Of a stretch of 34,306 nucleotides of DNA, positions 6,521 through 25,915 are shown piece by piece (the first letter of the stretch is position 1; the number at the start of each line of letters is the position of its first letter). A program made the position numbers and the translations under genes. Below the pieces are notes generated by a model that was not told where the DNA came from, made no database searches, and worked only from the letters and a program-made list of their open reading frames with translations. This DNA comes from a bacterium. Lineage in GTDB: Bacteria > SAR324 > NAC60-12. The DNA lies in the NCBI GenBank assembly GCA_965233585.1, contig CBDDTI010000073.1, positions 1 through 34,306 on the forward strand, read 5' to 3'.

Positions 6521-7264
6521 TTCCCCACCTGCCAGGTGAGGGTTGTTAGATTTTATGTCAGTTGCTTGCTCCTCCTCCTCCTCTCCTCGTCTCCTCTCCT
6601 CGTCTCCTCTCCTCGTCTCCTCTCCTCCTGCTCCCTGCCGGACCTCAACCACGACCATCACCGCCCAGTGTTCCCTGCCGGACCTCAACCGCGAGTATCC
6701 ACGCCCAGTGTTCCCTGCCGGACCTCAACCACGACCATCCCCGCCCAGTGTTCCCTGCCGGACCTCAACCACGACCATCCACGCCCAGTGTTCCCTGCCG
6801 GACCTCAACCGCGAGTATCCACGCCAAGTGTTCCCTGCCGGACCTCATGTAGGAAGATAAAATGTCAGATAGAGTGCCAGAAGATTTGCCAGGTAGAATG
6901 CCAGAAAATATGCCAGAAGATATGCCAGATAGATATGCCAGAAGATATTCCAGAAGATATGCCAGATAGAATGCCAGATAGAATGCCAGATAGAATGCCA
7001 GAAGATATGTCAGAATATATGCCAGAAGATATGCCAGATAGAATGCCAGATAGAATGCCAGAAGATATGTCAGATAGAATGCCAGAAGATATGCCAGATA
7101 GAATGCCAGAAGATTTGCCAGATAGAATGCCAGAAGATATGCCAGAAGATATGCCAGATAGAATGCCAAATACAATGTCAGAAGATATGTCAGATAGAAT
7201 GCCAGAAGATGTGCCAGTAAGAACATGTATAAATGTCATGGTGGGGATCACACGAAGTAAAGTA
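6521..7264 (+). mobile_element. Non-autonomous Helitron2/Helentron-like element, copy 1
   Basis: Starts TTCCCCACCTGCCAGGTGAGGG (hairpin CACCTG-C-CAGGTG) and ends GTCATGGTGGGGATCACACGAAGTAAAGTA. TCCCCACC/GGTGGGGA form asymmetric inverted repeats. Interior: CCT-rich tract, about five 40-bp units (6633-6847) and a 12-bp ATGCCAGAAGAT/ATGCCAGATAGA array. The same ends occur at 11490-12359 and 17191-18073. The repeat family is certain; the superfamily is inferred. Confidence 0.75.
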
Positions 7265-8105
7265 TTTAGTTAGTTAGTTAGTTAATTTGTTTGTTTGTTT
7301 GTTTGCTTGTTTGTTTGTTTGTTTGTCTGTGTGTGTTTGTTTGTTTGTTTGCCTGCTTGCTTGTTTGTTTGTTTGATTGTTTGTTTGTTTGTGTGTGTGT
7401 TTGTATGTTTGTTGGTTGGTTTGTTGGTTGGTTTGTTTGCGTTTTTTGTGCTTGCTTGTTTTTTGCTTGCTTGTTTTTTGCTTGCTTGTGTCTTTGTTAG
7501 TTCCTAGTAACCTAGTTTGTTTAATAGTTAGTTCAATAGTTTGTTTGTAAGTTTGTTACTTAATTAGAAAGTAAGCAATTAAGAAAGTAAGCAAGCAAGC
7601 AAGTACGAAAGTAAGTAAGAGTAAGTAAGAGTAAGTAAGCGTTTAACTAAGTAAGCAAGCAAGCAAGTAAGTAAGTAAGTAAGAAAGTAAGTAAGTAGGA
7701 GAGTAAGAGTAAGTAAGAGTAAGTAAGAATAAGTAAGAGTAAGTAAGAGTAAGTAAGAGTAAGTAAGAGTAAGTAAGAGTAAGTAAGAGTAAGTAAGAGT
7801 AAGTAAGAGTAAGTACGAGTAAGTAAGAGTAAGTAAGAGTAAGTAAGAGTCAGTAAGAGTGAGTAAGAGTGAGTAAGAGTGAGTAAGAGTGAGTAAGAGT
7901 GAGTAAGAGTGAGTAAGAGTGAGTGAATGAGTGAGTGAGTGAGCAAGCAAGCAAGTAAGTAAGTAGGAGCAGCAGGAACAGGAGCAGGAGCAGGAGTAGG
8001 AGTAGGAGCAGCAGTAGCAGTGGCAGCAGCAGTAGAAAGCAGAAGGAGAAGTAGAAGTAGAAGTGGAGGTAGAGGTAGAAGTCGAGGTAATAGCATTAGA
8101 AGTAG
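7265..8105. repeat. Compound microsatellite: (GTTT/GCTT)n, (AAGT/AAGC)n, 10-bp (AAGTAAGAGT)n grading to (GAGTAAGAGT)n, then (GCAGGA/GTAGAA)n
   Basis: Visible tandem units; they explain the ORFs at 7291-8199. Confidence 0.95.
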
Positions 8106-8937: not shown

Positions 8938-9402
8938 TTCCCCACCTGCCATGTGAGGGCATCTAGATTTTGACAACACATCCCGCACCCTTCCTTCCCT
9001 ATCCTTCCCCTTCTTTTCCCTTCCCATTGTCCTTCCCTTTTCCTTTTTGCTCTTAATTTTACTTGTCCCTTTCCCTTTCCATTCCTCTTTCCTTTTCCTT
9101 TCCCTCTTTCTTTTTGCCTTTACTTTCCTTTTTTACTTTTTTTTGCTTTTCCTTTTTCCTTTTTCCTTTTTGCTAGTCCTTTTCCTTTTCCTTTTCCTCT
9201 CCGCTTCCCCTTCCCCTTCCCTTCCCTCTCCCTCTCTCCTCCCTCTCTCCTCCCTCTCTCCTCCCTCTCTCCCTCTCTCCTCCCTCTCTCCTCCCTCTCT
9301 CCTCCCTCTCTCCTCCCTCTCTCTCCGTCTCCCCCTCTCTCCCTCTCCCTCTCCCTCTCCCCCTCCTCAAAAAAAATGATAAAAGGGGACTCCTGGGGAG
9401 TA
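8938..9402 (+). mobile_element. Diverged relative of the Helitron2-like family with a polypyrimidine interior
   Basis: The 5' end TTCCCCACCTGCCATGTGAGGGCATCTAGATTTT matches the family 5' end. The interior is (TTTTCC)n/(CCCTCTCT)n. The candidate 3' end is GGGG followed by the hairpin ACTCC-TGG-GGAGT (9389-9401). Confidence 0.5.
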
Positions 9403-9608
9403 TATCTTGGTATGTTGGTAGTTTTGTTTTTATGTTGCTGTTTAGCATCCTATCACTGTTTTTGATGTTTTTCCTGTGGGGGATTCTGGTGTTAATTTAT
9501 CAAAAAAAAGTCACGCTGACCCTCTTTTGTTTTTGTTTTTCTGTTTGTCTTCTGGGTTGTTGATTAGTTCATAATATTTTTTGTTAAGATATTATGAATT
9601 AATCAGGT

Positions 9609-10134
9609 TTATTTTGAAGTTTCTCTTTGCTCTCTTAAATATTCCTCATATTGTTCTTCATACATTTTATCGTGTTCTTCTCTCGTTTTTGGCGACCATA
9701 TATCATAAGGGTCGTGCATATGTTCATGTCCGTCGCTTTCATTCTCCTCATTCTTTATCTCCTGCATCATTTTTCTAATTTTATCCATACCATGTTCTTT
9801 GTCGTATCCTTCCATTACATTTCTAACTTTTTGAAAGCTATGTGTCTTTCAATCTCTTCGTCAGTCATCTTTCTAAACTGTTCTTTATATTGTTCATCAT
9901 ATGTGTTTTTTCTTCTTCTTCATTTCTACTATACATAAATGTTTTCATCCGTTTCTTTTCCATTTCTATATGTTTGTTTTCCATGTGTTGAAATTTAATC
10001 TGTTTATTTCCACATTTCCCACCCACATTTACGACGGTTTTAAGTATGTATCCCCAGTAGAGTTTGTCATATTTGCTTTTGTTCAAGTTAATCACATCAA
10101 CCATAATACGACATCCACACTCAAATTCCGTCAT
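9609..10134 (-). pseudogene. Frameshifted small acidic/charged protein gene, probably part of the viral element; function unknown
   Basis: Two consecutive minus-strand ORFs (10134-9865, 9815-9609) with protein-like E/K/M-rich composition and AT-rich codons, transcribed divergently from the integrase across a gap of about 100 bp. Confidence 0.5.
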
Positions 10135-10237
10135 CTGATTTACTCTTGATATACTAAGGCACTAAGGCGTCTTTTTTTCAAGTATATTTTTTACACTGTT
10201 GATAAATTAAAAAATAAAAATAATAAAATTAACTATA

Positions 10238-11017
10238 ATGGCAAGAAGGTTAACAAAAGAACAAATTATCAGCAACACTTACTACGATGTTGAAAGTGGC
10301 TTCGGAAGTATTCAAGAAACCTTTAAGAAAGAAAGAACATAAAACCAACAAAATCCAGAAATAAGTCTAGATGATGTTCAACACATTATGACAAAACAAC
10401 CAAACAAACAAATGAATGCCTATAGAGGTTCTAATTCTTTCACAGCCCCGTTCGCCCGTTATGAGTATCAAATAGATATAATTGATATAATGGTTATGGC
10501 GCCACTTTCCAAAGAATCAGAGGTAAAAATAACACCAACCAAAAAAGAACCAAAATATGCATTAGTAGTCATTGATATTTTCAGCAAATACGCTGATGTT
10601 TTACCAATGAAAGAAAACAATTCGGAGAGCGTATTAGAAGCATTGAACCAAGCATTTAAAAAGATTGGTTTTCCAATGTCCATTTATTCAGACAATGACG
10701 TGCGTTCCAATCAGTCGTTAGGAAGTTGTTTGATGACGAAGGCATACAACACATCGTCACGCAGACCCACGCAAATGTAGCGGAAAGGTTTATAAAAACA
10801 ATGAAAAATATAATGCACGAGAGGCTCAGGTTTAATAAAGCAGGTTGGACATCAATGCTGACACCAGCACTGAACAAATACAATTCCACCAAGCACTCAT
10901 CAACGAAGATGTCAACAAAACAAGCACACAAGGACGAGAACAATAGCACTGTGAGGGTAAGTTTAACATTAAGAGAAAACAACCGAAGAAAGTATCCAAC
11001 CATACGAGAAGGTGATA
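10238..11017 (+). pseudogene. rve-family (Polinton/Maverick-type) DDE integrase, frameshifted and 3'-truncated
   Basis: MARRLTKEQIISNTYYDVESGFGS...YEYQIDIID...YALVVIDIFSKYADVLPMK...PMSIYSDND [frameshift near 10700] AFQS...THANVAERFIKTMK...LNKYNSTKHSSTKM: the D, D, E core and the YN..xHSS motif of c-integrases. Stop/frameshift near 10340. Confidence 0.9.
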
Positions 11018-11161
11018 ATCGCTTCTAAGAAGTATCGCGAGTTTGAAGTTCAGAGTTTATCAGAAGCCTTTTACTTTTTGCGTGGCACACTTCATTTCAT
11101 GATTGCACACCAGAACTCAGTGAATATGTCATACCGCCAATTTAGAAAAAACAAATATGTA
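11018..11161 (+). pseudogene. Probable Polinton-like virus major capsid protein fragment, part 1
   Basis: IASKKYREFEVQSLSEAFYFLRGTLHFMIAHQNSVNMSYRQFRKNKYV continues in frame at 12923 after removing the TIR element. It resembles the second jelly-roll pattern (K.YP...S..E.FY.L...Y...KF.IG..FE) as recalled for PLV capsids. Confidence 0.55.
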
Positions 11162-12920
11162 CAGGCAGATGTTGAAGGCGGTACCGGTGGTATAAAATAG
11201 AGCTGTTCCCTTGTAGAAAACATTCAGGTGAAGGCGGTACCTTTAGCACTTAGTATGCGTTTCACAGACATTGGATTAAGCATGCCAGACCTTGGATCAT
11301 CTACTAACGCTAGCGTTAAGTCGTATCAGCTCGTAAAAGTCGTATCGGGAGGCCGTGCGCCTGGAAAAAGTTCAAATTTGGCATCACCACAACTTTTAGT
11401 AATTGAACGATTTCATTGTTTTGGGGCCGTGCGCCAGGAAACAATTAAATTTTTGTATGGCGTTGATTTTTAAAACTTATATTTGATCATTCCCCACCTG
11501 CCAGGTGAGGGTTGTTAGATTTTATGTCAGTTGCCTGCTCCTCCTCTCCTCTCATCTCCTCTCCTCCTCTCCTCCTCCTGCTCAACCGCGACCCTCGACC
11601 ACAGTGGTCTCTGTCGGACCTCAACCACGACCATCCTTCTCAGTGTTCCCTGCCGGACCTCAACCACGACCATCACCGCCAGTGTTCCCTGCCGGACCTC
11701 AACCACGACCATCACCGCCAGTGTTCCCTGCCGGACCTCAACCGCGGGTATCCCCGCCCAGTGTTCCCTGCCGGACCTCAACCACGACCATCCACGCCCA
11801 GTGTTCCCTGCCGGACCTCAACCGCGAGTATTCATGCCAAGTGTTCCCTGCCGGACCTCAACCGCGAATATCCACGCCAAAAGATATGCCACATAGAGTG
11901 CCAGAAGATATGCCAGATAGAATGTTAGAAGATATGCCAGATAGAAGGCCAGAAGGTATGCCAGATAGAATGTCAGCTAGAATGCCAGAAGATATGCCAG
12001 ATAAAGTGCCAGAATGTTTGCCAGATAGAATGCCAGCAGATTTGCCAGATAATATGCCAGAAGATATGCTAGATAGAATGCCAGATGGAATGCCAGAAGA
12101 TTTGCCAGATAATATGCCAGAAGATATGCCAGATGGAATGCCAGAAGATATGCCAGAACATATGCCAGAAGATATGCCAGAAGATATGCCAGAACATCTG
12201 CCAGAAGATATGCCAGAACATCTGCCAGAAGATATGCCAGGTAGAATGCCAGATAGAATGCCAGATCGAATGCCAGAAAATATGTCAGATAGAATGCCAG
12301 AAGATTTGCCAGTAACAAAATGTATAAATGTCATGGTGGGGATCACACGAAGTAAACTATTTTTTTCAATGGGGCAAACGCTGGTTGCTGCTTGCTTGCT
12401 GCTTGCCTGCTGCTGGCTGCTGCTTGCTGCTGCTTGCTGCTGCTTGCTGCTGCTTGCCTGCTGCTTGCTGCTGCTGTTTCTTGCCTGCTTCTTGTGTGCT
12501 GGTCCAGCACAATTTTTGATATGGAACCTTTCTGTCCAAACCTGACTTTTGAATCCGGAGTTCCAGTGCGAATTAAAACACACTGTTCATGAGATTCTGG
12601 CAGGAGTAGTCTTGAGAAGCGGAGTTCACATGGGGATTTGCTCAAGTGGTTTGGGCAGGTCTGAAGCATCAGTAAAAGCCAGCGTTCCATGGGAACGGCG
12701 AGTCATCAACCAAATATGTTTAATAGTTTGGGTACCGGCGTTCCATTGGAAAGATGTTTCCGGAAATGGGTGTTTTCAAGTCTACAAACCGTAAGCGTTA
12801 AAGCGTTTTCATTGGGTTTCATAGTCCATGCCCTGCCTTTCCTGACTTAGCCGTGACCACGGCGTTCCATGCAGGAACGCATATTCTAGCACCACCGGTC
12901 CTGCCTTCAACGTTCTCCTG
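11162..12920. mobile_element. Non-autonomous TIR DNA transposon (Tc1/mariner-like ends) with a nested Helitron2-like element
   Basis: Left end CAGGCAGATGTTGAAGGCGGTACCGGTGGT versus reverse complement of the right end CAGGAGAACGTTGAAGGCAGGACCGGTGGT (24/30). TA is duplicated at 11160-11161 and 12921-12922, and excision restores a reading frame. Subterminal repeats GAAGGCGGTACC, GGCCGTGCGCC and GCGTTCCA are present. Confidence 0.85.
11490..12359 (+). mobile_element. Non-autonomous Helitron2/Helentron-like element, copy 2
   Basis: Same 5' end (TTCCCCACCTGCCAGGTGAGGGTTGTTAGATTTTATGTCAG) and 3' end (GTCATGGTGGGGATCACACGAAGTAAACTA) as copy 1; 39-40-bp and 12-bp arrays; followed by a T run. Confidence 0.75.
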
Positions 12921-12922
12921 TA

Positions 12923-13093
12923 ATTGTTTTTCGCTTTGAAAACATGCAAGAAATTAATTTTATCGGCACTTTTGAAGCAAAAGGAACTGAAGGAAACTTA
13001 GCTTAAATTGAACAAATCCAAGAAACGTTTGTTAATTTAGTCCTTGAGAATGTCCTTGAATTAACTGAAAGCGGGGCGACATTTTATGATTCA
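12923..13093 (+). pseudogene. Probable major capsid protein C-terminus, part 2
   Basis: IVFRFENMQEINFIGTFEAKGTEGNLA*IEQIQETFVNLVLENVLELTESGATFYD, in frame with 11018-11161, with one internal TAA at 13004. The terminal beta-strand pattern (FV.L..E.VLEL...G...YD) is typical of double jelly-roll capsid C-termini. Not in the ORF track. Confidence 0.55.
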
Positions 13094-13443
13094 AATATGT
13101 GTTTAATTACTATTTGATCAATTTTCCAAGCCTTTAAAAAACCAAACAAAGCAAAACTACAGAAAACAGATGAGCAAACTTGAGGGGAAACCATCTAGGA
13201 CGGGCACGCACAAGCATCAGGAGGCAAGGTATATGAAATTGTTAAAAGAAAAACAGGATGAGAGAGAAACCAGAGACAAACTACTCGCAATAAGAAATGC
13301 CAGTGAATTATAGTAATGAAATCCGAAGGGACAACCTCACACATAATAGTCTAGAGCACCTACCGCATCAAATAAATAAATGTAAAATTGGTTCTACATA
13401 ATTTTTTACTATAGCAACAACAGTGATAATTAATGTGAACAAG

Positions 13444-14594
13444 ATGTCAAAAGATGGTTTAAAAAGAAAAACCTACCTATGTTGAAATTATATGAAATTA
13501 TCGGAAGGCTTGATGACAATGAGAGGGAAAAATACCAAATAGGGATGATTTTTTTCAAACGTAACCCTGAAGGATCATTTTTTGATGGGTCAGATGCCAT
13601 GGAACAATTTAGGGAAGAACGGGGAAAATTATTATTAAGACAAATGCTAGATGTTTTTGTAAGGCAAAATGCAAGAACAGCAGGGTTTCACACTGAAAGC
13701 ATGCAACAAATACCCACAACATCATCAACAATAGCACAGCCAACTCAACCCATGGATGTAGATGCAGAATTTACACAGCAGGCTACACCGGCAATACCAA
13801 GTTCATCAACAACTCAAGCATCTCAACTCAATGCTGAACTGACACAAAGAGCAAATACAGCAACCAAAGGAGAGAAGAAACAGAAATGAACCACATAGGA
13901 GAAGTGTTCAAACAAACCAAACCCACAATAACTGAGAAAATACATCACATAAACCCACCAGGAAGTTTTTTCCCATAAAACATGAAAGTTACAACATAGC
14001 AACTGATGATGAACCAATGCCACCAGTTCCAAAAGCAAAACTTAAAGCAGAGGCATCACCATTTTCAAGTTCTCACGCATTTCCCGTTATAAAAGTCATG
14101 GATGCAAGTTGCAAGTAGCAGTTCTAAAAGAGCCTCACTTGAAACAACAGTAGAACCAAGAGGTAAAGCAGGGAAACCTAAGATGTTCAAAGAAGGAACC
14201 GACAGAATGAATGCAGACAAGAGGAACGGAGGTAGTCTTGAAGACGAACTTAAAGTGAGAAAGAAACGTAACAAAAGGAAAATTGAGTTCGAAATAGGAG
14301 GAGGGGAAACTGACGATGAAATTGATGAACCAAAAGCCATTAGGAAAAAACAATGCAAAAACCAGTAGGTCCAAACACCATAGGAGTGCAAAGGTTAAAG
14401 AGGAACTTGTTAATGCCAACAACAACAACAAAATGATTTCAAAACAGCAGTGTGACATGTTTGACCGTGTTTGTTACGTATGGCTCAAATCGAAAGGCGG
14501 GGAAAAGATGAAAAAACAAATGTTGAAGCAAACGCGGGTTACTTACAAAGCGAATTTGTTTCAGAAATTGAAGGATGAATATAAGAAACAATGA
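13444..14594 (+). pseudogene. Multiply frameshifted low-complexity (Q/T/S then K/E-rich) protein gene of the viral element; function unknown
   Basis: Chain of same-strand ORFs (13479-13889, 14102-14368, 14316-14594) starting near ATG 13444 (MSKDGLKRK...); the stop overlaps a perfect hairpin. Confidence 0.55.
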
Positions 14595-14610
14595 GTTGTT
14601 TCGAACAACT
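14594..14610 (+). terminator. Perfect hairpin at the gene end (candidate 3'-end signal)
   Basis: AGTTGTT-TCG-AACAACT overlapping the TGA at 14592-14594. Confidence 0.3.
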
Positions 14611-14627
14611 GAGTGATTTTTAAAAAT

Positions 14628-14995
14628 TATGATTTGCGGAGTGCGTTGGTGTCTTTATTTGCTATTTTTGTAAAATCCAGAAATTATTTCTTGCAAAGGT
14701 AGAAACCATTTGCTAAATTCAAGAAACTATTTGCGAAATACTAGAATTTTTTGGCAAAATACCAGAAACTATTTGCAAAATACAAAAAACTATTTGCCAA
14801 ATTCTGGAAAACATTTGCTAAAAACTAGAAACGATCTGCCAAATTCTGGAAACCATGTGATAAATACTATAAACCATTTGTTAAATACTAGAAACCATTT
14901 GCTAAAGAAGTGGTATATGTAGAAACCCTTTTTCAAACAAAGTAGAAAATGCTGAAACCATTTGCTGAATCATGTTGATTTTCGAGAAACCATTA
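14628..14995 (+). repeat. Conserved head plus 21-bp tandem array (AGAAACYATTTGCNAAATACT-like); candidate inner part of an element terminal repeat
   Basis: The head ATGATTTGCGGAGTGCGTTGGTGTCTTT is followed by about 12 degenerate GAAACTATTT/GAAACCATTT units. An inverted homolog lies at 16300-16525. Confidence 0.7.
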
Positions 14996-15631
14996 CTTGA
15001 ATCAAAGGGGTAACATTTGCAAGTAAAAATTGTTATTGAAAATGTTGTCAGGGCAAACCTGGTCAATCTTGGAACACGCATTCGCCAATGGTAGTTTGTG
15101 GTGAGAAAAAACTAATTAATGTCCTTACCGCACATGCCAGTTTAATAGTACTAGAGCCTCCTTCACCCATGGCTCGCCACACTGAAACTGTTGACGCTTG
15201 AAACTTGAAAACATCTAGAATCCAATGGGGGGTACTATCGCGCCATACCAATTGCAATGCTGTTTCAATCCAGGAAAGGGTGTATCAAACAGCAACATAA
15301 ACACATTCGTTGTCCCAATGCAGTTTTTGCAAAATGCACCATACAACGCCATGAATACTTCCACACGCGATACCCACAAGCTGTGGGATACAAAAAAAAT
15401 TGTTCCCCAAACAAAACCATGTGGCTGATAGCCTTTGCGGGTGAGTTGGGGGATGTTGTTGGCAGGCCTTTGCCACATGGCATTTTAGACACTTCAGAAG
15501 ACCCCAAAAGTCCGGACTGGTGTGTGCCTGAATCTTTCTCTATTTGTCAAGGTCTGTCGGGGGGAGCCTGGGGGGGCGTCCGGTTTCGTGGGGAGCCTAC
15601 CGGCTTAACCCTGCTAAGATGTAAATATGAA

Positions 15632-15800
15632 AGGAAACTATTTCTTAAATCCTGGAAACTATTTTCTGCATCTTGGAAACTATTTTTTAAATCCCCGATT
15701 TTTTCTTAAATCCTGGAAACTATTTCTTACATCCTAGAAAATATTTTTTAAACCATACAAAACTATTTCTTTACCTGGGCCCCAAACCCAGAAACCATTT
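15632..15800 (+). repeat. 21-bp tandem array (GGAAACTATTTCTTAAATCCT) preceded by a G-rich tract at 15551-15600
   Basis: Visible units with the same GAAACTATTT core as the flanking arrays. Confidence 0.75.
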
Positions 15801-16299
15801 ACAAAACAAGGATTGCTTTTACCAAACCCAACCATTGGACAAGGATAGCAGTCAATCACTTGAAGTCCAGAGATTGCCCCAGACAAGTGAGCCATGCTCT
15901 CACCGAGAGAAAGGGGCTGCCAGGCTGTTGGCGCAGGCATTCTTCATTTTGTTTCGTTCTATGTTCGTTTGTTCCTTGACTCCTCATTTCAGAATCAGTC
16001 ACTGTTTCGTTCTTATTTATCAGTCTGTACAGAGTTTCAATATATCATAATGTGTCTTGATTTGTCAATCTAAGTTTTGTTCATCTTTAATTATTGGCGT
16101 ATTGTCTTGTTTGATGATTTAAGGCAGAGCAAGGGTATCACAGAAACCGTTTCACGCTACTTGCTAGGGAATAGTCCGAAACCGTTTCAAACTGTTTTTA
16201 ACCAATCCCTAGAAGGCCTAACTTGCATTACTTCTTTAGGTTTTAATTATATATAATTTATTGGATATTTTTCACAAATTGCATAGATTTAGATTTATT

Positions 16300-16525
16300 T
16301 TGGAATTAGTTTCTGTAAATTGGGATCGTTTAAAAAATAGTTTCTGCAAATTGGGTTGGTTTAAGAAATAGTTTCCGTAAATTGGGTTTGTGTAAGAAAT
16401 GGTTTCAAATAGTTTCCCAGCTTAGGGTTGGTTTAGGAAATAGTTTCTGTAAATTGTGGGTTTTTTTTTTTAGAAATAGCTTCTGGTTTCCACAAAAAGA
16501 GGCCAAGGCACTCCCCAAATCATGC
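16300..16525 (-). repeat. Conserved head plus roughly 30-bp tandem array with the GAAACTATTT core, inverted relative to 14628-14995
   Basis: The minus strand reads ATGATTTGGGGAGTGCCTTGGCCTCTTT, then units such as AGAAACTATTTCTTAAACCAACCCAATTTAC. Confidence 0.7.
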
Positions 16526-16621
16526 TGAGATTTTCAAGATGCAATGAGTTGTCCAAGAACCTGCATTTTTCAGGAAATTGGCATTAATTAATTAATCTCA
16601 GTATTAATTAACTTATTTTTT

Positions 16622-19600
16622 TCAAGCACTTATTGAATAATGTCCGTATGGCACGCTGTCAGTATCGTTCAACCAATACCTTTTATTATCACAACTGCTC
16701 AGTCCTACTTTGTTTGCTGTGTCAGGAGGTTTTTGCTTTTGATGGCTTTGAAATTTACATTCTTGGGTATGTGCTCGTGTAAGGTGGTTTCATAGTTTTT
16801 CATATCTAAGTTTTGTTACCTTTTAGTTTTGGAATTCCCTTTGTTTTCTTTTCTGCTTCCTTTTCCTTGAAATTTTTTCGACAATACATTTTCAGGCCTC
16901 AACGTTATGAATTTAGTTGTGATTTAACCGCCCATTTCGTTCTTAAATTTACACTGATTGTTTTTATTATAGCCGCTAAAATCCACATACTCATTAATTT
17001 CCTTTCAGTTTTCTCAAATGTTTTCCGTAAATGTTTGTATAACATATTTGTCCGGTGATCCTGATGTCGTCCTTACATTTTTTCTTAAAACATCATAGTG
17101 GACACTACACATATGCACATTTGAAGGGTTTAGTAGTGACATACGTAAAAAAAAAAAAATGGTTTGTTGAGTTTCAATTTCGTTTTTTTTTTCCCCACCT
17201 GCCAGGTGAGGGTAGTTAGATTTTATCAGAGCTGTTGTCCTCCGCCTCCTCCTCCGCCGTCTCCTCCTCCAGTTTCTCCTCGACCATGTCTGCATCAACT
17301 TCCACCTCCACTTCCGCCTTGCCAACTCTTCGCCAAGCTCTTCGCCAACTTCCCAGCTCAGTGCGCACTGCTGGACCTCAACCTGGGACCTTCCCAGCTC
17401 AGTGCGCACCGTTGGACCTCAACCTGGGACCTTCCCAGCTCAGTGCGCACCGCTGGACCTCAACCTGGGGCCTTCCCAGCTCAGTGCGCACCGCTGGACC
17501 TCAACCTGGGACCTTCCTAGCTCAGTGCACACCGCTGGACCTCAACCTGGGACCTGCTGAGCTCAGTGCGCACCGCTGGACCTCAACGGCCAGATAGAAT
17601 GCCAGAAGATATGCCAGATAGAACGCCCGATAGAATGTCAGAAAGAATGCCAGAAGATATGCCAGATAAAGTGCCAGAATGTTTGTCAGATAGATGGCCA
17701 GAAGATATGCCAGATAGAATGCCAGAAGGTATGCCAGATAGAATGCCAGAAGGTATGCCAGATAAAGTGCCAGAATGTTTGCCAGAACATATGCCAGAAG
17801 ATTTGTCGGAGAGAATGCCAGATAGAATGCCAGAAGATATGCCAGAAAATATGCCAGATAGAGTGCCAGAAGATACGGCAGAACATATTGCAGAAGATAT
17901 GCCAGGTAGAATGCCAGAAAATATGCCAGGTAGAATGCCAGAAGATATGCCAGATAGAATGCCAGAAAATCCGCCAGATAAAATGCCAGAAAATATGACA
18001 GATAGAATGCCAGAAGATTTGCCAGTAACAAAACGTATAGATGTCATGGTGGGGATAACTCGAAGTAAAGTAATAGTTTTTCAACTCCTGACAGTTCTTC
18101 GTTGATGATATGACATCCCGTGTAATTAGAATTGTTAATGCATTTTGGTATTTTATTTTGTGTTGCTAATAATCCAAAATCAATGTGGTTGCTGACGTTC
18201 TCGTTCGTTTTACCATAGCATTTTTCATCAGTTTCAACATATCTCTGTTTAAATTTGGCCCCTTTATGGACTTTTGTTAGTGTCATGTCTTTCGTTAAAT
18301 AAAACTGTAGAATTTGATGTGAACCACATCATTTGTTTTGAATTGTTGGTTTAATATGAGTTTTGGTTGCTTCTTGTCCCTTGTTTCTTTTCCAATCATT
18401 ATTATAATGTATGTATAAATCCCTCTGGTGTTTTGATACAATGTTTTTGTTCAACCTTCATGTTTTTTGGAACTAACGGATAATCTGACTGTTCGTCGTG
18501 TATCTCCTTTTTGGGTATTCAAATTCAATTTCAAATATGTATGCGTTGTCATCGTTTTCGTTCCAGTCCATTATTTTTTTTCTGTTAACCTGTTTTTTTA
18601 TCCACTTCAATTTTCGTATTGGTAGTTTCATTGACATCGCCAGTCCGTAAAGTTTATTCGCGTCCAAGTAGTTGATATAATTAGACCGTTTGCTTTCATC
18701 ATAGTCGTCCATCATCGCCTCCGCTTCCTTATGACTGACCTGACACATCCCACCCCTGAAACCCTTCTCTATCATCTCATACATGTTTTTATCACTTAAG
18801 GGGCCTATTTCAATCCCAGTTTTCAACAACATAGCGTCCCAAGCAAAGTTAGGCAATGTAAAGTAATGCGCGGGTTCTAAACCGTAGTATTCCAAACATA
18901 AGCCTCCAAAATTTTCAGAAGCATCAGTGAGCAACAAAACACCGGTTCTCAAATACAAATCGTGATACTGTCCGAGGTTTCTTTTCCCGAAGTGCTTCCA
19001 TATTTTAAGTGTTTTTTCATACTCATCATCTTCAATATGATGTTCGGTGAGATTGCTGTAAAAGGGTTCTTTCGGTGATACAGTGCAGTTGTTTTCCCCT
19101 GAATTTATCAAAGGCACCTTCATCAGTCAGTAAATCTAAATTCTCGCCATTACTCGCATATGGTTTTTTCTGACTAAACTTGATTTTTCCCAGTTTTCCT
19201 TTATGTTTCCTTTTTCACATTTACTCAATTCAACCCGTTTGTCCGAAGAAAATGATAAGAAAGAAAAACCGTCCTTGAAACAAAAATGTTTAAAAGCAAA
19301 GGTGATATTTTTTTCGTCGTTCAACGCTATTACATCATTTCTATTTCATTTCTACCGTTCTGCGATACTTCATTCGCCCTCTCAATGATTAAATGACCGT
19401 CTTAGTTTTGTAGATTATGAGGGAAGACTGGGTCTTTGTAATAGCGCATTGAAAATTGTAAATTACAATCGTCGTGGGCGCACCCCCTGTATTCACATGT
19501 AAAGTGGCAGTGGTCGCGAACGTTGTTGTCGCCTTTTTGAAACTCATTACCACATATAAAGCATGTAGTGACGGTTTTAAAGCCTCTCCAGTCATCAGCC

Positions 19601-21139
19601 CTGATAATGATTTCTTTATTTTTTCATTTTGTTCATAATCTTATAGTTTTTTACTTCAACCGTTTTTTTGGACGAATACATCCATACAATATTCGCCACT
19701 GTATAGGAAAGGCTCATTGGAATTATCAATGGAATTATCAACATGAATCATAAAACTGCAGGGTCTGTGATGTTGGTAGCGGTCGGTTTTAAGTTCTTTC
19801 GTGCTGACCGTTCCTGGTTTGGTTGTTAAGCATGCAAAGTCAGCATATATCACCAATGGAGGTTTTAACTTTTTGTAACCGTTCTTGAAAACCATAATTT
19901 GTGTTTTCTTTTGGCATTTTTATCTGTTGCCCTTCCACTGCCATACATCCCGAAACTTTTCGGTGTGTTGGTTTAAAAGTTGTTGTGATTGAAAGCCACG
20001 ACTGCAATGAAAGCAATGATACTTCTTTATTTTTTTGGTTTGGTTTCCCATCAACTTGTCATAATTTTTGATAAACACACCATGGTAGTCGTCTCCGTGA
20101 AACTTGAAGGCTTACTTGATGAGTTGTTTTTAGTGTTTTAGTTTTTCCACATAATAGGATTGACTGTTTATTTTCTTCGGGGTTCGGAAAATAAACATTA
20201 ATTTAATTGCAATTTTGCCTTCGTTGTTTTTTTCAAAGGTGTCTATATCAACATTGGGTGTTAGAACATTTACATTGTTCCAGTTAAGTTCATCATTCAA
20301 TTTTTTATAGTTATATAATCTGTTTGGATTGTCTTTCATAGTCTTTGCATATACCACATTGGACGGAATACTTGAAACATTGGTTGTCTTCGTTTTGAAT
20401 TTTGATACACGCCTTTTTGTCTGAAACCAATTTGGTAATGGAATGAATTTGCCCCCACGAGTTGGACTGAATTTGTCCATGTTGAATTGCAATGTATCAA
20501 TTTGGGTTATTACTAAACCGCTCTTTGATAATTCCATCTTACCCATTTGAAATTCAATATCTGTTGCTATTTGGGTTGAAACATTTGTGATTTCTTCTTC
20601 GTTGGTTATTTCGTATCTCCTGTTTTTTACTGTGTGTCTTACCTCTTCGTTGGTCTTGATGCTTTTGAAGGTGTTGAAGGTTTTTAAACATTACTTTCAT
20701 ACCCTTGTTCTGTCGTCGTAGATACTCTTTCATTTTGAAGTCTTGATGTTTAAGATATTGTAATGCCTTGATGCCTCTGACCCTGATGTTGCTGATGGCA
20801 TTAGAAGTTGTGTAGTTCTTGAAGGCAGATTGTTCGTCTGTAACGGTTGTTTTGTAGCGTTTTTGTATTCCTGTAAGTGTTTTTTGTTCTTGTCTAAATT
20901 TACCAATCTAAGACCTTTCTGTTCTTTCAGTTCGTATTTCTTGTGTTCAATGGTTTGTTTCACTTTGTTGAATTTGTTTGCAAGTCTCTGTGTGATGGGT
21001 TTGTTCCTATCAAAATTGTAGGTCTTGTCTCCTACCTTCAGCTTCTTGAATTTTCTTCCATTCTGTTTAACGATTTCCCCCTCTTTGGAGGTTGACAGAC
21101 AATCTACAGTAAAACAATCTTCTGTGAGCCTTCCATCAT
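16622..21139 (-). pseudogene. Protein-primed family B DNA polymerase (Polinton/Maverick type), full length but heavily frameshifted and interrupted by the 17191-18073 insertion
   Basis: Collinear motifs: GGKFIPLPNW..CIKIQNEDNQCFKYS; YHCFHC; ExoI PPLVIYADFA; CFIC..VRDHCHFTCEYRGCAHDDCNL; ExoII HNLQNYDGH; ExoIII LGQYHDLYLRTGVLLLTD; PAHYFTLPNFAWDAML; GFRGG; motif A YLDANKLYGLAMSMKLP; YGKTNEN. After the insertion: KLNKP..MS..HYDVL, KFKNEMGG, and C-terminal KVGLSSCDNKRYWLNDTDSVPYGHY ending at TGA 16622-16624. Motif C (YxDTDS) is not recognisable. Confidence 0.92.
17191..18073 (+). mobile_element. Non-autonomous Helitron2/Helentron-like element, copy 3 (different subfamily) inserted in pPolB
   Basis: Same termini (3' GTCATGGTGGGGATAACTCGAAGTAAAGTAA); a 41-bp array TTCCCAGCTCAGTGCGCACCGCTGGACCTCAACCTGGGACC plus the 12-bp array. 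Removal rejoins pPolB GVEKL|KTKLKLNKP at a T run with no distinct target duplication. Confidence 0.8.
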
Positions 21140-21437
21140 ATTATAGCCTATATGATTATACGTATTATTATTAGTTGGTGCTTTTTTAAGTAGATTTAGT
21201 GATGGATTTTGGGGTTGAGGATGTTGAGACTGAAGTCGTTGTTGATTGGGTTGAGTTTCAGCATTCATTCTACTCTTTCACCTTGTATCCCCTGCCATAT
21301 ACTCCCCAATATATAATGTAATATTTTTTAAGTTGTTTTTGGGGTTTTGGTTTGCTGGTGGATTTTTTTGTGATTGGGGTTGGAGTTCAACCCATAAACA
21401 TTTTTGATAAAATTTATCACGATTTTTTCCGATTTGT

Positions 21438-21765
21438 TCAGCAATTGTCTTTCTGGTTCATGCACCTGTTCGTTTGGCGATGCTTTGATAGGTTGGATTT
21501 GCTTGATATTGTCCGTCCGCAGTTGGGGCAGATGTAAGGGGTTTTGAGTTTTTTTGATAATGGTTTCTAAAGTAGTTGGGGTCTAAGGGTTTCTTGTTAT
21601 ATGTTCCGTCGGGTTGCCTGCCTGTGGATTTTGTGTGGGTTGGTGAGTTGTGGATGTTGTCGGATTGGCGCAGTGTTTCCACCAATTGGTTGAAAAGGTC
21701 TTCGTCTATTTCTTGCCTAAGTCCGTCTATAAACATGTAGCAGGCCACACTTTCTCTTAATTCTA
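21438..21765 (-). pseudogene. Small zinc-finger protein gene (C-x2-C-x12-H-x5-C), frameshifted, 5' end cut by a repeat
   Basis: ...GRQPDGTYNKKPLDPNYFRNHYQK [frameshift in an A run near 21550] LKTPYICPNCGRTISSKSNLSKHRQTNRCMNQKDNC*; co-oriented with and upstream of pPolB. Confidence 0.7.
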
Positions 21766-21960
21766 GAAGATATGCCAGATAGAATGTCAGAAGATATGCC
21801 AGTCATATAGAATGTCAAAAGATATGCCAGCCGTCGTCGTTGTCGTCGTCGCTTGAACCAAAACGGCTATATAGTATTTTTATATTAGGGCAAATGGCAC
21901 GGTAATAAGTCTGCCTTTGTCAAACCCCCCTCGCTCCTCTTTTACCGTGCCACCCCCTTT
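21765..21960 (+). repeat. Short 12-bp ATGCCAGA-type array remnant, (GTC)n and an 11-bp inverted repeat; probable end of another interspersed element
   Basis: AGAAGATATGCCAGATAGAATGTC units at 21765-21830; TGGCACGGTAA (21895-21905) and TTACCGTGCCA (21942-21952). Confidence 0.55.
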
Positions 21961-22110
21961 TATCTGATGTAAAATTTGTATATAATTTATGTATCACGTA
22001 TGTATATATATATATATTTGTTTATTTATGGATGGATGGATGGATTGGTGGAATGACGCGTGGATGAAAGGATAAGTCATGAACCTGCATCAAACATATA
22101 TATATATATA

Positions 22111-22682
22111 ATGTCAAGTTAGGATTAATAATCCCCGCGGTATTAATCAACCCCCTCTGCCCAATTTTTTTGGTAATTTAAAAAAAGGTGGTCCCCCAGG
22201 ATTAATAAACCCCCCGATTAAAAAAACACCAGTGCTGAAATAATTTTTTTATCCAACAATTTTTATTTCCAATTCTATTTATTTCCAATTTGTTTTTACC
22301 TTTTTTTAAATCATCATCGTTATACTTAAGGTTTAAGTTGATCATTGAAAAATTCAAAAAATGACTATTCCCCAAATGATCGATTTCTAATTAAAATCTT
22401 TATAAAAATCATCAGTTTGGATAGCTCCCAAAGGGTACCCCCCATGAGCCCATGTCCCCCACTAATAATAACCATGGTTTGCCCCTGATTAATCAACCAC
22501 CTTTCTGATCCATGAGATTTTAACAAATCCAATAGAATTCTATTAAGATCTAATTGACGTAAGCCATATCCAAATTTTTATGGTTCAGAGTTGCTTATAT
22601 TATTAAGGGGTGGTCGAGAAACTAGCCAGAAGGTACCCCCCTACCTACCAGGGGCGGGGGTTGATTAGTCCGATGTTGGCAT
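22111..22682. mobile_element. MITE of about 570 bp inserted in (TA)n
   Basis: Left ATGTCAAGTTAGGATTAATAATCCCCGC versus reverse-complemented right ATGCCAACATCGGACTAATCAACCCCCGC; TA on both sides; internal repeats of ATTAATNAACCCCC at about 22142, 22201 and 22488. Confidence 0.7.
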
Positions 22683-23345
22683 TATATATATGTATATTTT
22701 TTTAAAAAATTAGACATAGATATAATTTAAAAAAATAAGCATATGTATATATATATATACATTACATTCCTAAAAAGGTTCCAGATTGTTGCACGCTATG
22801 GTTAAAGAGGTTGCCAAACGTCAGTCTCTGAAGACTGCTGGACAAGGTCAAAGCTTCAACGCTTTGAGGTTGATGTTTCTTATCAAAAAATGAGGTTATA
22901 ACTCAAAATGAGGGGAATTGAAGTTTATGCCTGATGTTTTTTCCTGCCCATCTCCTGAAAGAGCTTCGCGTTGGTGTCTTTTAAAACCTGTCGCAAGAGA
23001 GCGAGCTGGTGATTGTCAAAGGAATCACAGTGAAAGATCTGAAAGACTGTCGCTCAAAAACTGTTTTTTTTCACCTATTCGGCGAACTGATGTTTTTGAA
23101 GTGTGAAACCATAGACATTACCCTATCCATATTTGGTCTCCCGATACTCCTACATGGGGATGCTCAGTCCCGAAACTGGGGATTGGGAATGGTCAATCCC
23201 AAAAACTGGGGATGGTCAATATTGAAACTGAGCATTGTGGATTTCTTAATTTGATTTTGAGGATTGGCAAGGTTTATCAGAACAACCCCTTTGGACACAT
23301 CCAACTCTGCCACAATTTGGCCAAGGTACTAAACAACTACCTCAA

Positions 23346-23975
23346 TTACATAATAGCACGTCGTGCTTCCTGTCCATTTGAACTTTCAGCATCTTCACTC
23401 TCAATTGACCGACGAAGTCTTGCCCGATACTGTCCAAGCGAGCGAAGTTCTTCAGCAAAATCATCATTGTTGAAGGTGAAGGACGATGTATCACTAGTGT
23501 TGTGATACTGTTTTCCATACCCCAAGGCAACGGTCTCAAGAAGTTCCTTCTTCGCCAAGTTGAGATGAGAGATTGCTGTGTGAATGTCCGCCATCTCTTT
23601 GAACATCACGTATGCCATTTGGATGATGCGGTCTTCGGTGTATCCACCCGAACGACGTTTGAAGATGGAAGAGAGAAACTGAGTTGGTCATCATTCATTG
23701 TCTCCAAAATGTCCTTGAAAGAGATCTTACCCGAAGTAATCTTCCGTTTGGCATCGCGGACTTTTTCAAGCATTGGGTCAATGAAGGTAGAAAGATTGGC
23801 AGGGCAAGGTCCAGTGGCATCCTCAAAATCGCTTTCATTGAAATGCCTCGACTTGATTTTGCTAATGGCGTTTTTCAAGATAGCATCCAACTTCTCATTC
23901 TCCTTCAGATATCCCTTGACGACACGCTTCACCTTGTCTCAACGGACGCTTGACGAGCGAAAGAGAATAACTTGA
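23346..23975 (-). pseudogene. Intronless uncharacterised helical protein gene, frameshifted
   Basis: Overlapping ORFs 23932-23606 and 23618-23346 join by a frameshift (GYTEDRIIQMAYVMFKEM...); protein-like composition; ends ARRAIM*. Confidence 0.55.
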
Positions 23976-24012
23976 TGCACAAAATGGTTTTTCCCAATTG
24001 ATACTTCAATCG

Positions 24013-24258
24013 GTGCATCTTCTGTGGAATGAACAACGCTCAACGTTGAAACTCAAAACGACTGACAACTCAGCGATGGGTTCTTTCTGCAAAATATCTG
24101 AACTGAATGACGGGCGCTTTTCCAGATAATGTTTCACTTAGTGCATCAACTGTGGAATGACAAACGCTCAATGTTGGAAATAAGAAAAGACTGACATCTC
24201 AGTAATGGATTTCTTCCTGCATCATGTCTGGGTCTGAACTGATTGAGTGACGCTTTTG
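24013..24258. repeat. Two diverged direct repeats of about 110-120 bp
   Basis: GTGCATC..CTGTGGAATGA..AACGCTCAA.GTTG...GACTGACA.CTCAG..ATGG...TCTGAACTGA at 24013-24121 and 24141-24258. Confidence 0.8.
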
Positions 24259-24377
24259 TTATGACCATCGGGCGACAGTGCAGTCTGTGAGATGCATCTC
24301 ACCAGCAATGTTCCAACGCAGGTGTCCAAGAACTCTGTTCAAACGACCGTGAAAAATTGTTGGAGATGAACATATGT

Positions 24378-25132
24378 CTATAGAGTTTTCTTTACCTTGG
24401 TGTCCTGCGTCCTTGCCGTAATATCTATGTTCAACCGTTGCTCAGTTTCCTCCAGAAATTCCAAGCGCGGCTCAGAAGTGTCCTCTTGCTCGGTGTTGCA
24501 ATCATCAAGGTTCTGAAGCTAGGTCGCATACTCATTGGCGGAGAAAGCATCAATCTGCTCGGTGTCCTTCATTTTCAACTCAGGCCCTTTCAAGGTAGGA
24601 CGGGCGTTGTCCTTCGTGAAAGTCTTTTGACAATGCCCTTCAAGAATTCATCCTTTGCCTTCTTGGAGGATTTCTGAAGTCCCTCCCAATCAGGATGAAG
24701 CATCCCAACCTCATTGCGCAACTCAGCGATAGTGGAAGTGCCAGTCATTTCCACAATCTCCACAACATCATCAGAACTCCGAAAGGAGGCCGTGATTTCA
24801 ACCATCTTGGAGCGCTCCGCCTTGATGTCAGCAGACTTCTTGGCATTGCGTTCCTTGGCACGTTCCTTTGCATTTGCCTCACTGACCTCCTTCTTCAACT
24901 TGATATGCAGAGCTTTCAAGGTTGCAAGTTTGGAGGCAGTCATAATCAATTCACCTTGGAGATTATCAACCACTGCCTTCACATCCGCAAAGGTCATCGT
25001 CTGGATAACATCAATGAAGTCCTTTCCCACCTCCACACGTTTGTAGTCAATCTTTGGAAACTTGTCCTTCTTATTCTTCTGGACAGTCGGTGCCGAAGTG
25101 GTAGATGAAGCAGGGGCAGAGTAACCAGACAT
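24378..25132 (-). pseudogene. Intronless coiled-coil protein with a possible ubiquitin-like domain and an acidic tail; frameshift and internal stop
   Basis: MSGYSAPASSTTS...KEVSEANAKERAKERNAKK...VEITASFRSSDDVVEIVEMTGTSTIAELRNEV... [frameshift near 24625] FTKDNARPTLKGPELKMKDTEQIDAF...; the strand-strand-helix pattern is reminiscent of a beta-grasp fold. Confidence 0.5.
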
Positions 25133-25699
25133 TGCTCGCACAAATCGCTTTGAAAATTAAGGCAAACAAGTAGTGCCAAGCGGTCTTGAAAAGAAAATCC
25201 ATGTGCATCAAGTGATATATTCATCTATCTTTCCATCTGAAGTCAAGTCTGAACAATCGTCTCACATACACCATTGAAGCCGGAAATGAGAAGCGCAACA
25301 ACCCGCCACATTGCACACTGGCACAGCACTGCTAAACAAGTCGGGTCGGGACTACCATCTTTTGGATGAACACGTTGTTCCCGTGGCATGGGGCGAACCG
25401 GTTGAAAAGGGTTGGAAATGAAGAATGATACAAGATGTGAGAAACGAAGAAGAGAAACCAAAAGAACAATACGAAAGTGATGATAGTAAAATTCATACAA
25501 CAGAAGAAAACAACCGCAACAAATCCTTTCCTCATTGAAACCAAATCATACCAAATCCATTGAACATGTTTGATAAATTGCCCCCCAGAACCCCCACACA
25601 CAAAAACATCAAAGACAGTGATAAAACATTTGCGCCCAACCTAAAAACGAAAGAACCAACATACTAACCTATACCCCCCAGGAGCCTCCGTTTGTCATT

Positions 25700-25915
25700 T
25701 TTTCCCCCTCCCTCTCTCCCTCTCTCCCTCTCTCCCTCTCTCCCTCTCTCCCTCTCTGCCTCCCTCCCTCTCTCCCTCTCTCCCTCTCTCCCTCTCTCCC
25801 TCTCTCCCTCTCTCCCTCTCTCCCTCTCTGCCTCTCTCCCTTCCTCTTCCTCTTCCCTCTTCCTCTTCCGCGTCCTCTTCCTTTTCCGTTTCTTTCCTTG
25901 TTTCCTTCTTTCCTT
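25700..25915. repeat. Polypyrimidine (CCCTCTCT)n tract
   Basis: Visible tandem units; they explain the ERGREG ORFs. Confidence 0.9.

Follow-up and report, generated by a model that had tools for sequence, protein, structure and literature searches.

A 34,306-nucleotide contig filed under a SAR324 bacterium very probably carries a dead endogenous copy of a Polinton/Maverick-like virus. The contig (CBDDTI010000073.1 of assembly GCA_965233585.1; the whole stretch is called the window hereafter) would then be mis-binned, and the host of the copy would be a eukaryote. The copy spans positions 9371 to 25703 and is best explained as a deleted member of the same type as locus L083, an element in a public metagenome. 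It holds an rve-type integrase, a protein-primed DNA polymerase (pPolB), and a remnant of a double jelly-roll (DJR) capsid gene under nested insertions. The initial annotation of this DNA had described a fossil element of this composition, and the present analysis supports that description. Below, C-numbers denote contigs of the same assembly and L-numbers denote public metagenome loci. The pseudogenes were analysed as read-through translations with X at the stops, together with natural intact relatives.

The integrase and polymerase pseudogenes

Pfam was run on 18 stop-to-stop open reading frames (ORFs) of 9609–21765, none of which matched DNA_pol_B_2. The rve profile matches positions 10343–10780 (E 3.5e-7, 30.9 bits), and all three DDE positions are retained when the integrase is aligned with its intact relatives of 313 amino acids (aa). 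The gene is interrupted by one stop and, at 10699, by a frame change, and it lacks the last ~55 residues. The closest relative is the integrase of L083 (75–78% identity, versus 59–60% for that of contig C657), which is intact and passes the rve cut-off (38.9 bits). All six PDB matches of the C657 integrase are retroviral integrases (E 0.05–0.3). The integrase named by the initial annotation is present, with its catalytic positions kept.

As revealed by tblastn with the ORFs of the relatives, the polymerase maps to 16628–17205 and 18047–21328 on the minus strand, and it is collinear with residues ~1–1288 of a single 1285-aa ORF in L083. The C-terminal part is 47–58% identical to C657 and L083 in long pieces and 76–82% identical in the last ~30 residues. 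The N-terminal domain of ~430 residues belongs to one ORF with the rest of the polymerase both in L083 and in public homologues of ~1250 aa. The window gene has decayed; its six collinear pieces lie in frames that alternate, and together they contain 17 stops and 5 frame changes.

Identity is ~55% between the window polymerase and the C657 ORF, and ~61% between the latter and the sequences P0040 and P0031; these two match DNA_pol_B_2 (PF03175) across the whole profile (E 2.9e-13 and 1e-11). Since homology is transitive through intact relatives that match PF03175, the pseudogene can be identified as a pPolB, as had been claimed. Homologues of the C657 ORF are abundant, with 7982 of the 8000 candidates scored lying at E ≤ 1e-5; among the 120 homologues listed, 21 have PF03175 and 12 have PF02945. 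The nearest Atlas clusters of the polymerase have PF03175/PF02945 at 0.95–0.98 and are arthropod-rich.

The initial annotation had also reported a complete series of pPolB motifs and a separate zinc-finger gene. All motif positions are indeed represented, but only motif A is intact. The E of ExoI has become A, the Y of ExoII a stop, and the D of ExoIII a G; motif B is partly deleted, motif C has changed from YTDTDS to TSGSPD, and KxY is lost. An Endonuclease_7-like CxxC/HCH motif lies at 19402–19623 (E 1.1e-5), between ExoI and ExoII, and thus also belongs to the polymerase rather than to a gene of its own. The zinc-finger gene does not exist as such, as positions 19920–20111 align with residues 378–426 of the L083 polymerase ORF; the Pfam C2H2 matches of this segment are all sub-threshold.

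The capsid remnant and the p403 region

Two pieces of a major capsid gene follow the integrase. The tblastn match of the first piece extends over 11018–11167, and the second piece has one stop. The intact homologue in contig C155, a 514-aa protein, was folded with 27 natural relatives (pLDDT 60, pTM 0.66). In a Foldseek search against BFVD, the model gave a best E of 2.3e-17 and 128 matches at E ≤ 0.001; against the PDB, it matched PBCV-1 Vp54 (E 3.8e-15), followed by SGIV, Sputnik, and vaccinia D13. The top matches are DJR capsids only, and the Atlas neighbours are viral capsid clusters. Judged from its predicted fold, the 514-aa protein family is a DJR major capsid protein family. No relative of the capsid was found in IMG/VR. 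Thus, the capsid fragment claimed by the initial annotation is a real DJR remnant, but it covers the last quarter only (residues ~402–514 of 514).

The next remnant, at 13122–13386, is 49–75% identical to C424 17431–17757 and C155 12436–12759. It is followed by a pseudogene that is called p403 here, with 4 stops and 2 frame changes. Its identity to the 372-aa ORF of C155 and the 403-aa ORF of C424 is 50–67%, or 70–74% at the nucleotide level, and it has 616 homologues. The spacer between p403 and the polymerase (14592–16627) resembles none of the relatives at the protein level (E ≤ 1). Related 21-bp arrays (14700–14906 and 15633–15771) bracket a GC-richer 0.7-kb piece of this spacer, which may be a further insertion.

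The ends of the element

The initial annotation had placed the boundaries at 9609 and 21765, which proved too narrow. Terminal inverted repeats (TIRs) of ~130 bp put the ends at 9371 and 25703, giving an element of 16.3 kb. The ends of C657 and C581, another relative in the assembly, are inverted, and their counterparts lie in the window at 9371–9605 and, reversed, at 25583–25706. The window TIRs have homologous counterparts at the ends of C657, C581, and L083; all of them begin with an A-run and then TG, and the right end of L083 matches both window arms. The CT-rich microsatellite of the left flank resumes on the plus strand just past the right end (25708–25860). Since the identical plus-strand microsatellite is found on both flanks, the element landed in that repeat. 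The divergence of the TIRs was considered as an age estimate and rejected, because the arms of the intact-looking C581 and C657 are also only 59–63% alike.

Small conserved ORFs lie inside both ends. The ORF at 9711–10158 is 53–63% identical to C581 5521–5994, C657 13855–14379, and L083 467–973 by tblastn, and its sole Pfam match is below the cut-off (Phage_RB18_ORF43, E 1.9e-4, 21.7 bits versus 27). The ORF at 21441–21748 is 49–65% identical to C657 30854–31207, C581 22373–22702, and L083 17734–18042. The right arm beyond it (21749–25582) has no similarity to the relatives, and neither the right arm (10 ORFs tried, E ≤ 0.01) nor the window flanks gave a Pfam match at or above the cut-off. The sub-cut-off matches of the right arm are NABP (E 0.0015) and She9_MDM33 (E 0.0065). 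The right arm of L083 has a similar length, 3.8 kb. An Rfam scan of the window gave no match. All features are listed in Table 1.

Table 1. Features of the window (positions in the 34,306-nucleotide stretch)
Feature	Position	Strand	Basis
CT-rich microsatellite, left flank	9187–9368		repeat finders and direct reading
Left TIR	9371–9500	+	matches the reverse complement of 25583–25703 (110 of 161 aligned bases)
Small conserved ORF beside the integrase	9711–10158	−	tblastn, 53–63% to relatives
rve-type integrase pseudogene, residues ~2–261 of ~316	10238–11016	+	Pfam rve, tblastn, DDE
Major capsid remnant, piece a, residues ~402–451	11018–11161	+	tblastn, 74% to the C155 514-aa protein
Nested non-autonomous TIR element, compound, 1.76 kb	11162–12921		~30-bp inverted ends, TA on both sides
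Satellite-bearing element copy within the nested insertion	11491–12357	+	termini, 39–41-bp and 24-bp arrays as in 6529–7265
Major capsid remnant, piece b, residues ~449–524	12920–13090	+	tblastn, 48% to the C424/C155 C-terminus
Remnant of the small ORF following the capsid gene in C424/C155	13122–13386	+	tblastn, two frames
p403 pseudogene, low-complexity, S/T/Q/K/E-rich	13392–14591	+	50–67% to C155 and C424 ORFs
Spacer with 21-bp and 31-bp tandem arrays	14592–16627		TRF
pPolB pseudogene, C-terminal part, motif C region to end	16628–17193	−	tblastn to C657 and L083
Nested satellite-bearing element inside the polymerase	17194–18076	+	family of 6529–7265; T-rich flanks
pPolB pseudogene: exonuclease domain, Endonuclease_7-like zinc motif, palm motifs A and B	18077–19889	−	Pfam, tblastn, alignment
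C2H2-like motif inside the polymerase ORF	19920–20111	−	59% identity to L083 ORF residues 378–426
N-terminal ~430-residue polymerase domain	20031–21328	−	45–47% identity to C657 29472–30782
Small conserved ORF upstream of the polymerase	21441–21748	−	49–65% identity to relatives
Right arm of the element, content without assignment	21749–25582		no Pfam match at cut-off, no similarity to relatives
Right TIR	25583–25703	−	counterpart of the left arm, ends of relatives
Second copy of 18733–25047, clipped by the contig end	27995–34306		99.79% identity over 6317 columns

Relatives and the origin of the mosaic

Within the assembly, C657 and C581 are fuller relatives of the window element. C581 and C322 represent one locus (99.4% identity over 24.1 kb). 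These pPolB-type elements are called A-type here, while the helicase-type elements of C155 and C424 are called B-type. The integrase and polymerase of the window are nearest to the A-type elements, and its capsid side is nearest to the B-type. I scanned public metagenome contigs with the capsid alignment, which gave 99 relatives, 80 of which were kept; 28 loci are at least 6 kb in length. In ten of these loci the B-type capsid occurs with the helicase protein (eight also have the B-type integrase), in four (L082, L083, L054, and L085) with the A-type polymerase, and in 14 with neither; no locus has both replication proteins.

L083 shows nearly whole the parent type, which is ~21 kb long and bounded by TIRs. 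Its order is the small ORF (minus strand), integrase (plus), a methylase fragment, an ATPase-like ORF, a fibre gene (745 aa, with an S74 chaperone domain), further ORFs, capsid (plus), a p403-like gene (plus), polymerase (minus), and the right TIR. The window has the same order and orientation for integrase, capsid, p403, and polymerase. Integrase, polymerase, and capsid genes also occur together in C581, C322, and C657 as well as in L083, in agreement with the co-occurrence expected by the initial annotation. Since the window is collinear with L083 on both sides of the junction at 11016/11018, it appears from this comparison that the window copy lost ~9.4 kb, from integrase residue ~255 to capsid residue ~402. 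The packaging ATPase, which the initial annotation had not found, is absent from the window, and its expected site lies inside the deleted segment. A Pox_A32 ATPase is present in C581 (E 4e-11), C657 (E 2e-11), and C155 (E 4e-5), and in L083 by similarity.

The same junction could instead be the join of a pPolB-type and a helicase-type element, that is, a unique chimaera formed in situ. Only the window, among the 60 Polinton contigs of the assembly, joins an A-type polymerase and integrase to a B-type capsid and p403; its capsid-side genes are 50–74% identical to those of C155/C424, with no A-type capsid match at E ≤ 1. However, the four public loci named above have the same pairing, L083 has the same gene order and orientation together with the closest integrase, and one deletion suffices for the junction. 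A chimaera made in place is thus very unlikely. The mosaic suspected by the initial annotation is real in that a B-type capsid is paired with an A-type polymerase and integrase, but it is not unique to the window. Because the pairing is shared by L082, L083, L054, and L085, the mosaic is a trait of the lineage. A broader scenario, in which the B-type capsid and p403 module circulates on two unrelated backbones within one reef holobiont and the window is a fossil of a recombinant lineage bearing pPolB, seems improbable at present.

Two further observations were made on the relatives. C155 (4000–25300) and C424 hold a nearly intact helicase-type element with rve, a superfamily 1 (SF1) helicase protein, two GIY-YIG genes, a DJR capsid, an ATPase, and a methylase fragment. 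Between C581 (9181–15231) and C657 (17600–23722), a ~6-kb block of capsid, methylase, and ATPase is inverted, while the elements are otherwise collinear and 85–90% identical.

Nested insertions, decay, and tandem duplication

The initial annotation had placed nested insertions at 11162–12920 and 17191–18073, and both are correct within a few bases. The element at 11162–12921 breaks the capsid reading frame, while the polymerase frame resumes on each side of 17194–18076. The satellite-bearing family has a solo copy at 6529–7265 and copies on seven other contigs. It is non-coding and has short inverted ends; a GTGAGG lies near the 5′ end and a TAG at the 3′ end. A solo 5′ end of the family lies near 8940. 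Together with PMC11957031, the GTGAGG raised the idea that the nested elements could be introners. A Pfam search of 25 ORFs from the contigs that share this family gave nothing useful.

Stops are found in every gene, as expected from the pseudogenisation noted initially, and judged from its reading frames the copy is no longer able to make any of its proteins. In two coral metatranscriptome runs, X15 and X16, fractions of 0.49 and 0.30 of the sampled words of 9371–17190 were present, where carry-over DNA and transcription are indistinguishable.

A tandem segmental duplication with a period of 9262 bp has produced a second copy of the right part, and both copies carry the same defects. C581 has a similar partial tandem duplicate of the right part of its element, downstream (16093–26804 = 41210–55876). 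The identity of the repeats at the two loci is 97–99.8%. The repeat starts inside the polymerase in the window, and ~1.7 kb before the polymerase 3′ end in C581. Real segmental duplication, a side effect of the element, or an artefact of the assembly could each account for these repeats.

By analogy with other members of the family, the polymerase of the active virus would have copied a linear genome from its inverted ends. The integrase would have inserted this genome into the DNA of the host, and the particle would have been built by the products of the capsid, ATPase, and fibre genes. For the window copy, the sequence points to the following history. It was inserted in the CT-rich microsatellite, and ~9.4 kb between the integrase and the capsid gene were lost. 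At least two non-autonomous elements were nested into it, and stops and frame changes accumulated in every gene. The right part would have been duplicated in tandem later, and the two copies share the defects.

Weighing the identification of the element

Several results weigh against a Polinton/Maverick-like virus copy. The rve score of the window (30.9 bits) is below the curated cut-off of 32.6 bits, and none of the four read-through pieces of the window polymerase reached DNA_pol_B_2 at E ≤ 1. The profile check of the products that the initial annotation had proposed thus gave the rve match, though a sub-cut-off one, but not the polymerase match. PDB sequence searches with the intact polymerase and with a 14-sequence family profile found no polymerase. 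A cysteine protease (Adenain/Ulp1-like) was not found by Pfam at E ≤ 0.01 in the ORFs of C581, C657, C155, and L083, although remote forms could escape such a search. No penton was recognised by Pfam in the same four relatives; ORFs of 285–289 aa in L083 are candidate pentons. The TIR arms of the window are only 68% alike, and because both flanks are microsatellite, a target-site duplication of 5–6 bp is indistinguishable from the repeat.

An artefact of assembly and a free virus genome were also considered as origins of the contig, in place of an integrated copy. The bin is of the metagenome type with much foreign DNA, and the 99.8% tandem duplicate that reaches the contig end could be a mis-join. 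On the other hand, the two nested repeat families are also present on seven other contigs, microsatellite flanks the element on both sides, every gene has stops, and 14 runs each contain half or more of the words sampled from the stretch. Such an origin is therefore scarcely credible, and the integrated, decayed copy of an L083-type element remains the preferred explanation.

The contig in its assembly

The window is the entire contig C73 of a 747-contig, 12.0-Mb assembly that is listed as that of a prokaryote. Long ORFs cover 79–87% of five large contigs (2.9 Mb), which look bacterial, while this cover is below 45% in 662 of the 747 contigs (7.26 Mb). The window has a GC content of 40% and abundant microsatellites and satellites. 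Given this low coding cover and the microsatellites, the context of the window is eukaryotic and not bacterial. Thus, the window is eukaryotic DNA from a coral-associated sample, placed in the bin of a bacterium. By marker genes the assembly is 92.5% complete and 2.1% contaminated, yet it contains ~7 Mb of low-coding eukaryotic contigs.

Matches to Polinton-like polymerases, integrases, or helicases were found on 60 of the 747 contigs. About 50 of the 60 belong to distant lineages, whose polymerases are 25–50% identical in the best segment to that of C657, the nearest intact polymerase relative of the window within the assembly. Examples of the distant lineages are C212, C328, C523, C193, and C93, and some of these contigs have animal markers and an observed/expected (o/e) CpG ratio near 1. 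Other unusual contigs were also seen. C615 (3000–26000) is a unidirectional tandem array with a period of ~7.7 kb and ORFs of 200–260 aa, six of which were tested and gave no Pfam match above the cut-off; it has a CpG o/e of 0.39 and also carries the nested satellite-bearing repeat family of the window. Five contigs in k-mer cluster 1 (176.5 kb in total, GC 40%) have almost no CpG (median o/e 0.04).

Dinoflagellate or coral host

The host is probably a Symbiodiniaceae-like dinoflagellate. The initial annotation had suggested a dinoflagellate, which stands as the better guess but is unproven, with no marker found and animal DNA in the same assembly. Six of the 120 capsid homologues listed are named by organism, and all six are Symbiodinium kawagutii models with ~70% identity. 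Among the 60 Polinton contigs, the ten lowest values of CpG o/e (0.47–0.72) are those of the contigs that belong to the window's lineages, and nine of these ten contigs fall into one k-mer cluster. Symbiodiniaceae have strong genome-wide CpG methylation and a GC content of 44–50%, while invertebrate repeats are mostly unmethylated. Across all low-coding contigs, the CpG o/e has no clean bimodality. The tetranucleotide distance from the short window flanks to the animal-labelled contigs comes from flanks that are dominated by microsatellite.

The same element could be one of the many polintoviruses of the coral animal, a possibility that is less probable but deserves attention. Across nine studies, the stretch was found in coral metagenomes and in four coded organisms. 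The assembly contains animal DNA, probably from the coral, with 38 matches over the cut-off to 7tm_1 (rhodopsin-type G-protein-coupled receptors) and 13 matches to the BEL/Pao Peptidase_A17, together with other animal-type repeats (Penelope-like reverse transcriptase with GIY-YIG). Five of the ~50 distant-lineage Polinton contigs share a contig with animal markers. The GC content of the window contig (0.40) matches that of the animal-labelled contigs, and the arthropod-rich Atlas clusters nearest to the polymerase also fit an animal host. According to a study of stony corals (Virus Evol 2024, veae039, PMC11131425), Scleractinia have hundreds to thousands of PolB+rve polintoviruses. The markers of a dinoflagellate were not detected in the assembly: there were no matches to the spliced leader DinoSL, to PCP, or to the light-harvesting protein. 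These results all weigh against the dinoflagellate, but with only a few Mb of eukaryotic DNA in the bin, the absence of a marker is weak evidence.

What argues against the coral is the separation of the window's lineages from the animal-labelled DNA. None of their ten contigs has a 7tm_1 or A17 match. Their low CpG o/e and their k-mer cluster set them apart from the 48 other Polinton contigs, which sit with the animal markers; the cluster holds none of the 20 7tm_1 contigs that were clustered, one of the 12 A17 contigs, and none of these 48. The single A17 contig that shares the composition of the window-lineage elements speaks for the animal. The non-element flanks of the window-lineage contigs have 45–48% GC, versus 39% for the animal-labelled contigs, and the organism-named homologues among the capsid matches listed are those of a dinoflagellate.

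Comparison with known systems

Polinton-like fossils of this type have already been described at scale in dinoflagellates and stony corals, and the window is an ordinary dead example. Bellas et al. 2023 (PMC10120064) describe thousands of dinoflagellate elements with pPolB or helicase, rve, and TIRs, and separate "Dino group" major capsid proteins (MCPs). Likewise, Gozashti et al. 2025 (PMC11957031) describe proviruses of Symbiodinium and Polarella with pPolB or helicase, rve, GIY-YIG, ATPase, and MCP; small transposons are inserted in a quarter of these proviruses, and intron-generating transposons are found inside. The window or its relatives share with the dinoflagellate Maverick-Polinton-like elements a length of 15–30 kb, TIRs, rve, pPolB or helicase, MCP, ATPase, GIY-YIG, methyltransferase, a GC content below that of the flanks, and secondary insertions of small transposons. 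The capsid homologues with ~70% identity in the S. kawagutii protein set are a further likeness. The window copy differs in being a deletion derivative without an intact gene.

The stony-coral polintoviruses resemble the window element in having PolB, rve, and MCP, often TIRs, and a coral habitat, according to the coral study cited above. Such elements are carried next to animal markers by the ~50 other contigs of the assembly. The relatives of the window polymerase on those contigs are at best 25–50% identical, however, and their CpG and k-mers differ.

As in the pPolB of animal Mavericks and adintoviruses, an Endonuclease_7-like zinc motif lies between ExoI and ExoII, and the nearest Atlas clusters, with their PF03175 and PF02945, are another likeness to this group. 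In contrast, no adenain-like protease was found by Pfam in the relatives scanned. The capsid is similar to that of adintoviruses at the fold level only, with an adintovirus entry in BFVD at rank 16 (E 1.4e-11, C155 model). The helicase-type elements of C155/C424 have the nearest capsid C-terminus, small ORF, and p403, and they carry rve, an A32-like ATPase, GIY-YIG, and a methylase fragment. They differ in having a 1354-aa protein with an SF1 helicase domain and no pPolB, and their integrase is 37–38% identical to that of the window.

Implications

Beside catalogues of thousands of elements, one more decayed copy has little weight alone. The ~7 Mb of eukaryotic DNA and the 60 of 747 contigs bearing Polintons in a file labelled "prokaryote" can mislead surveys of bacterial gene content. 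Taken together, the assembly and the public loci show cleanly, in a natural case, how one capsid module is combined with either a pPolB or a helicase replicon. There are two backbones, namely the pPolB with one type of integrase and the SF1-helicase protein with another, and the pairing of the capsid module with them bears on the exchange of modules between Polintons and Polinton-like viruses. If the two backbones, or the ~50 distant contigs, belong to different partners of the symbiosis, fossils like this one would record an exchange of virus modules between corals and dinoflagellates.

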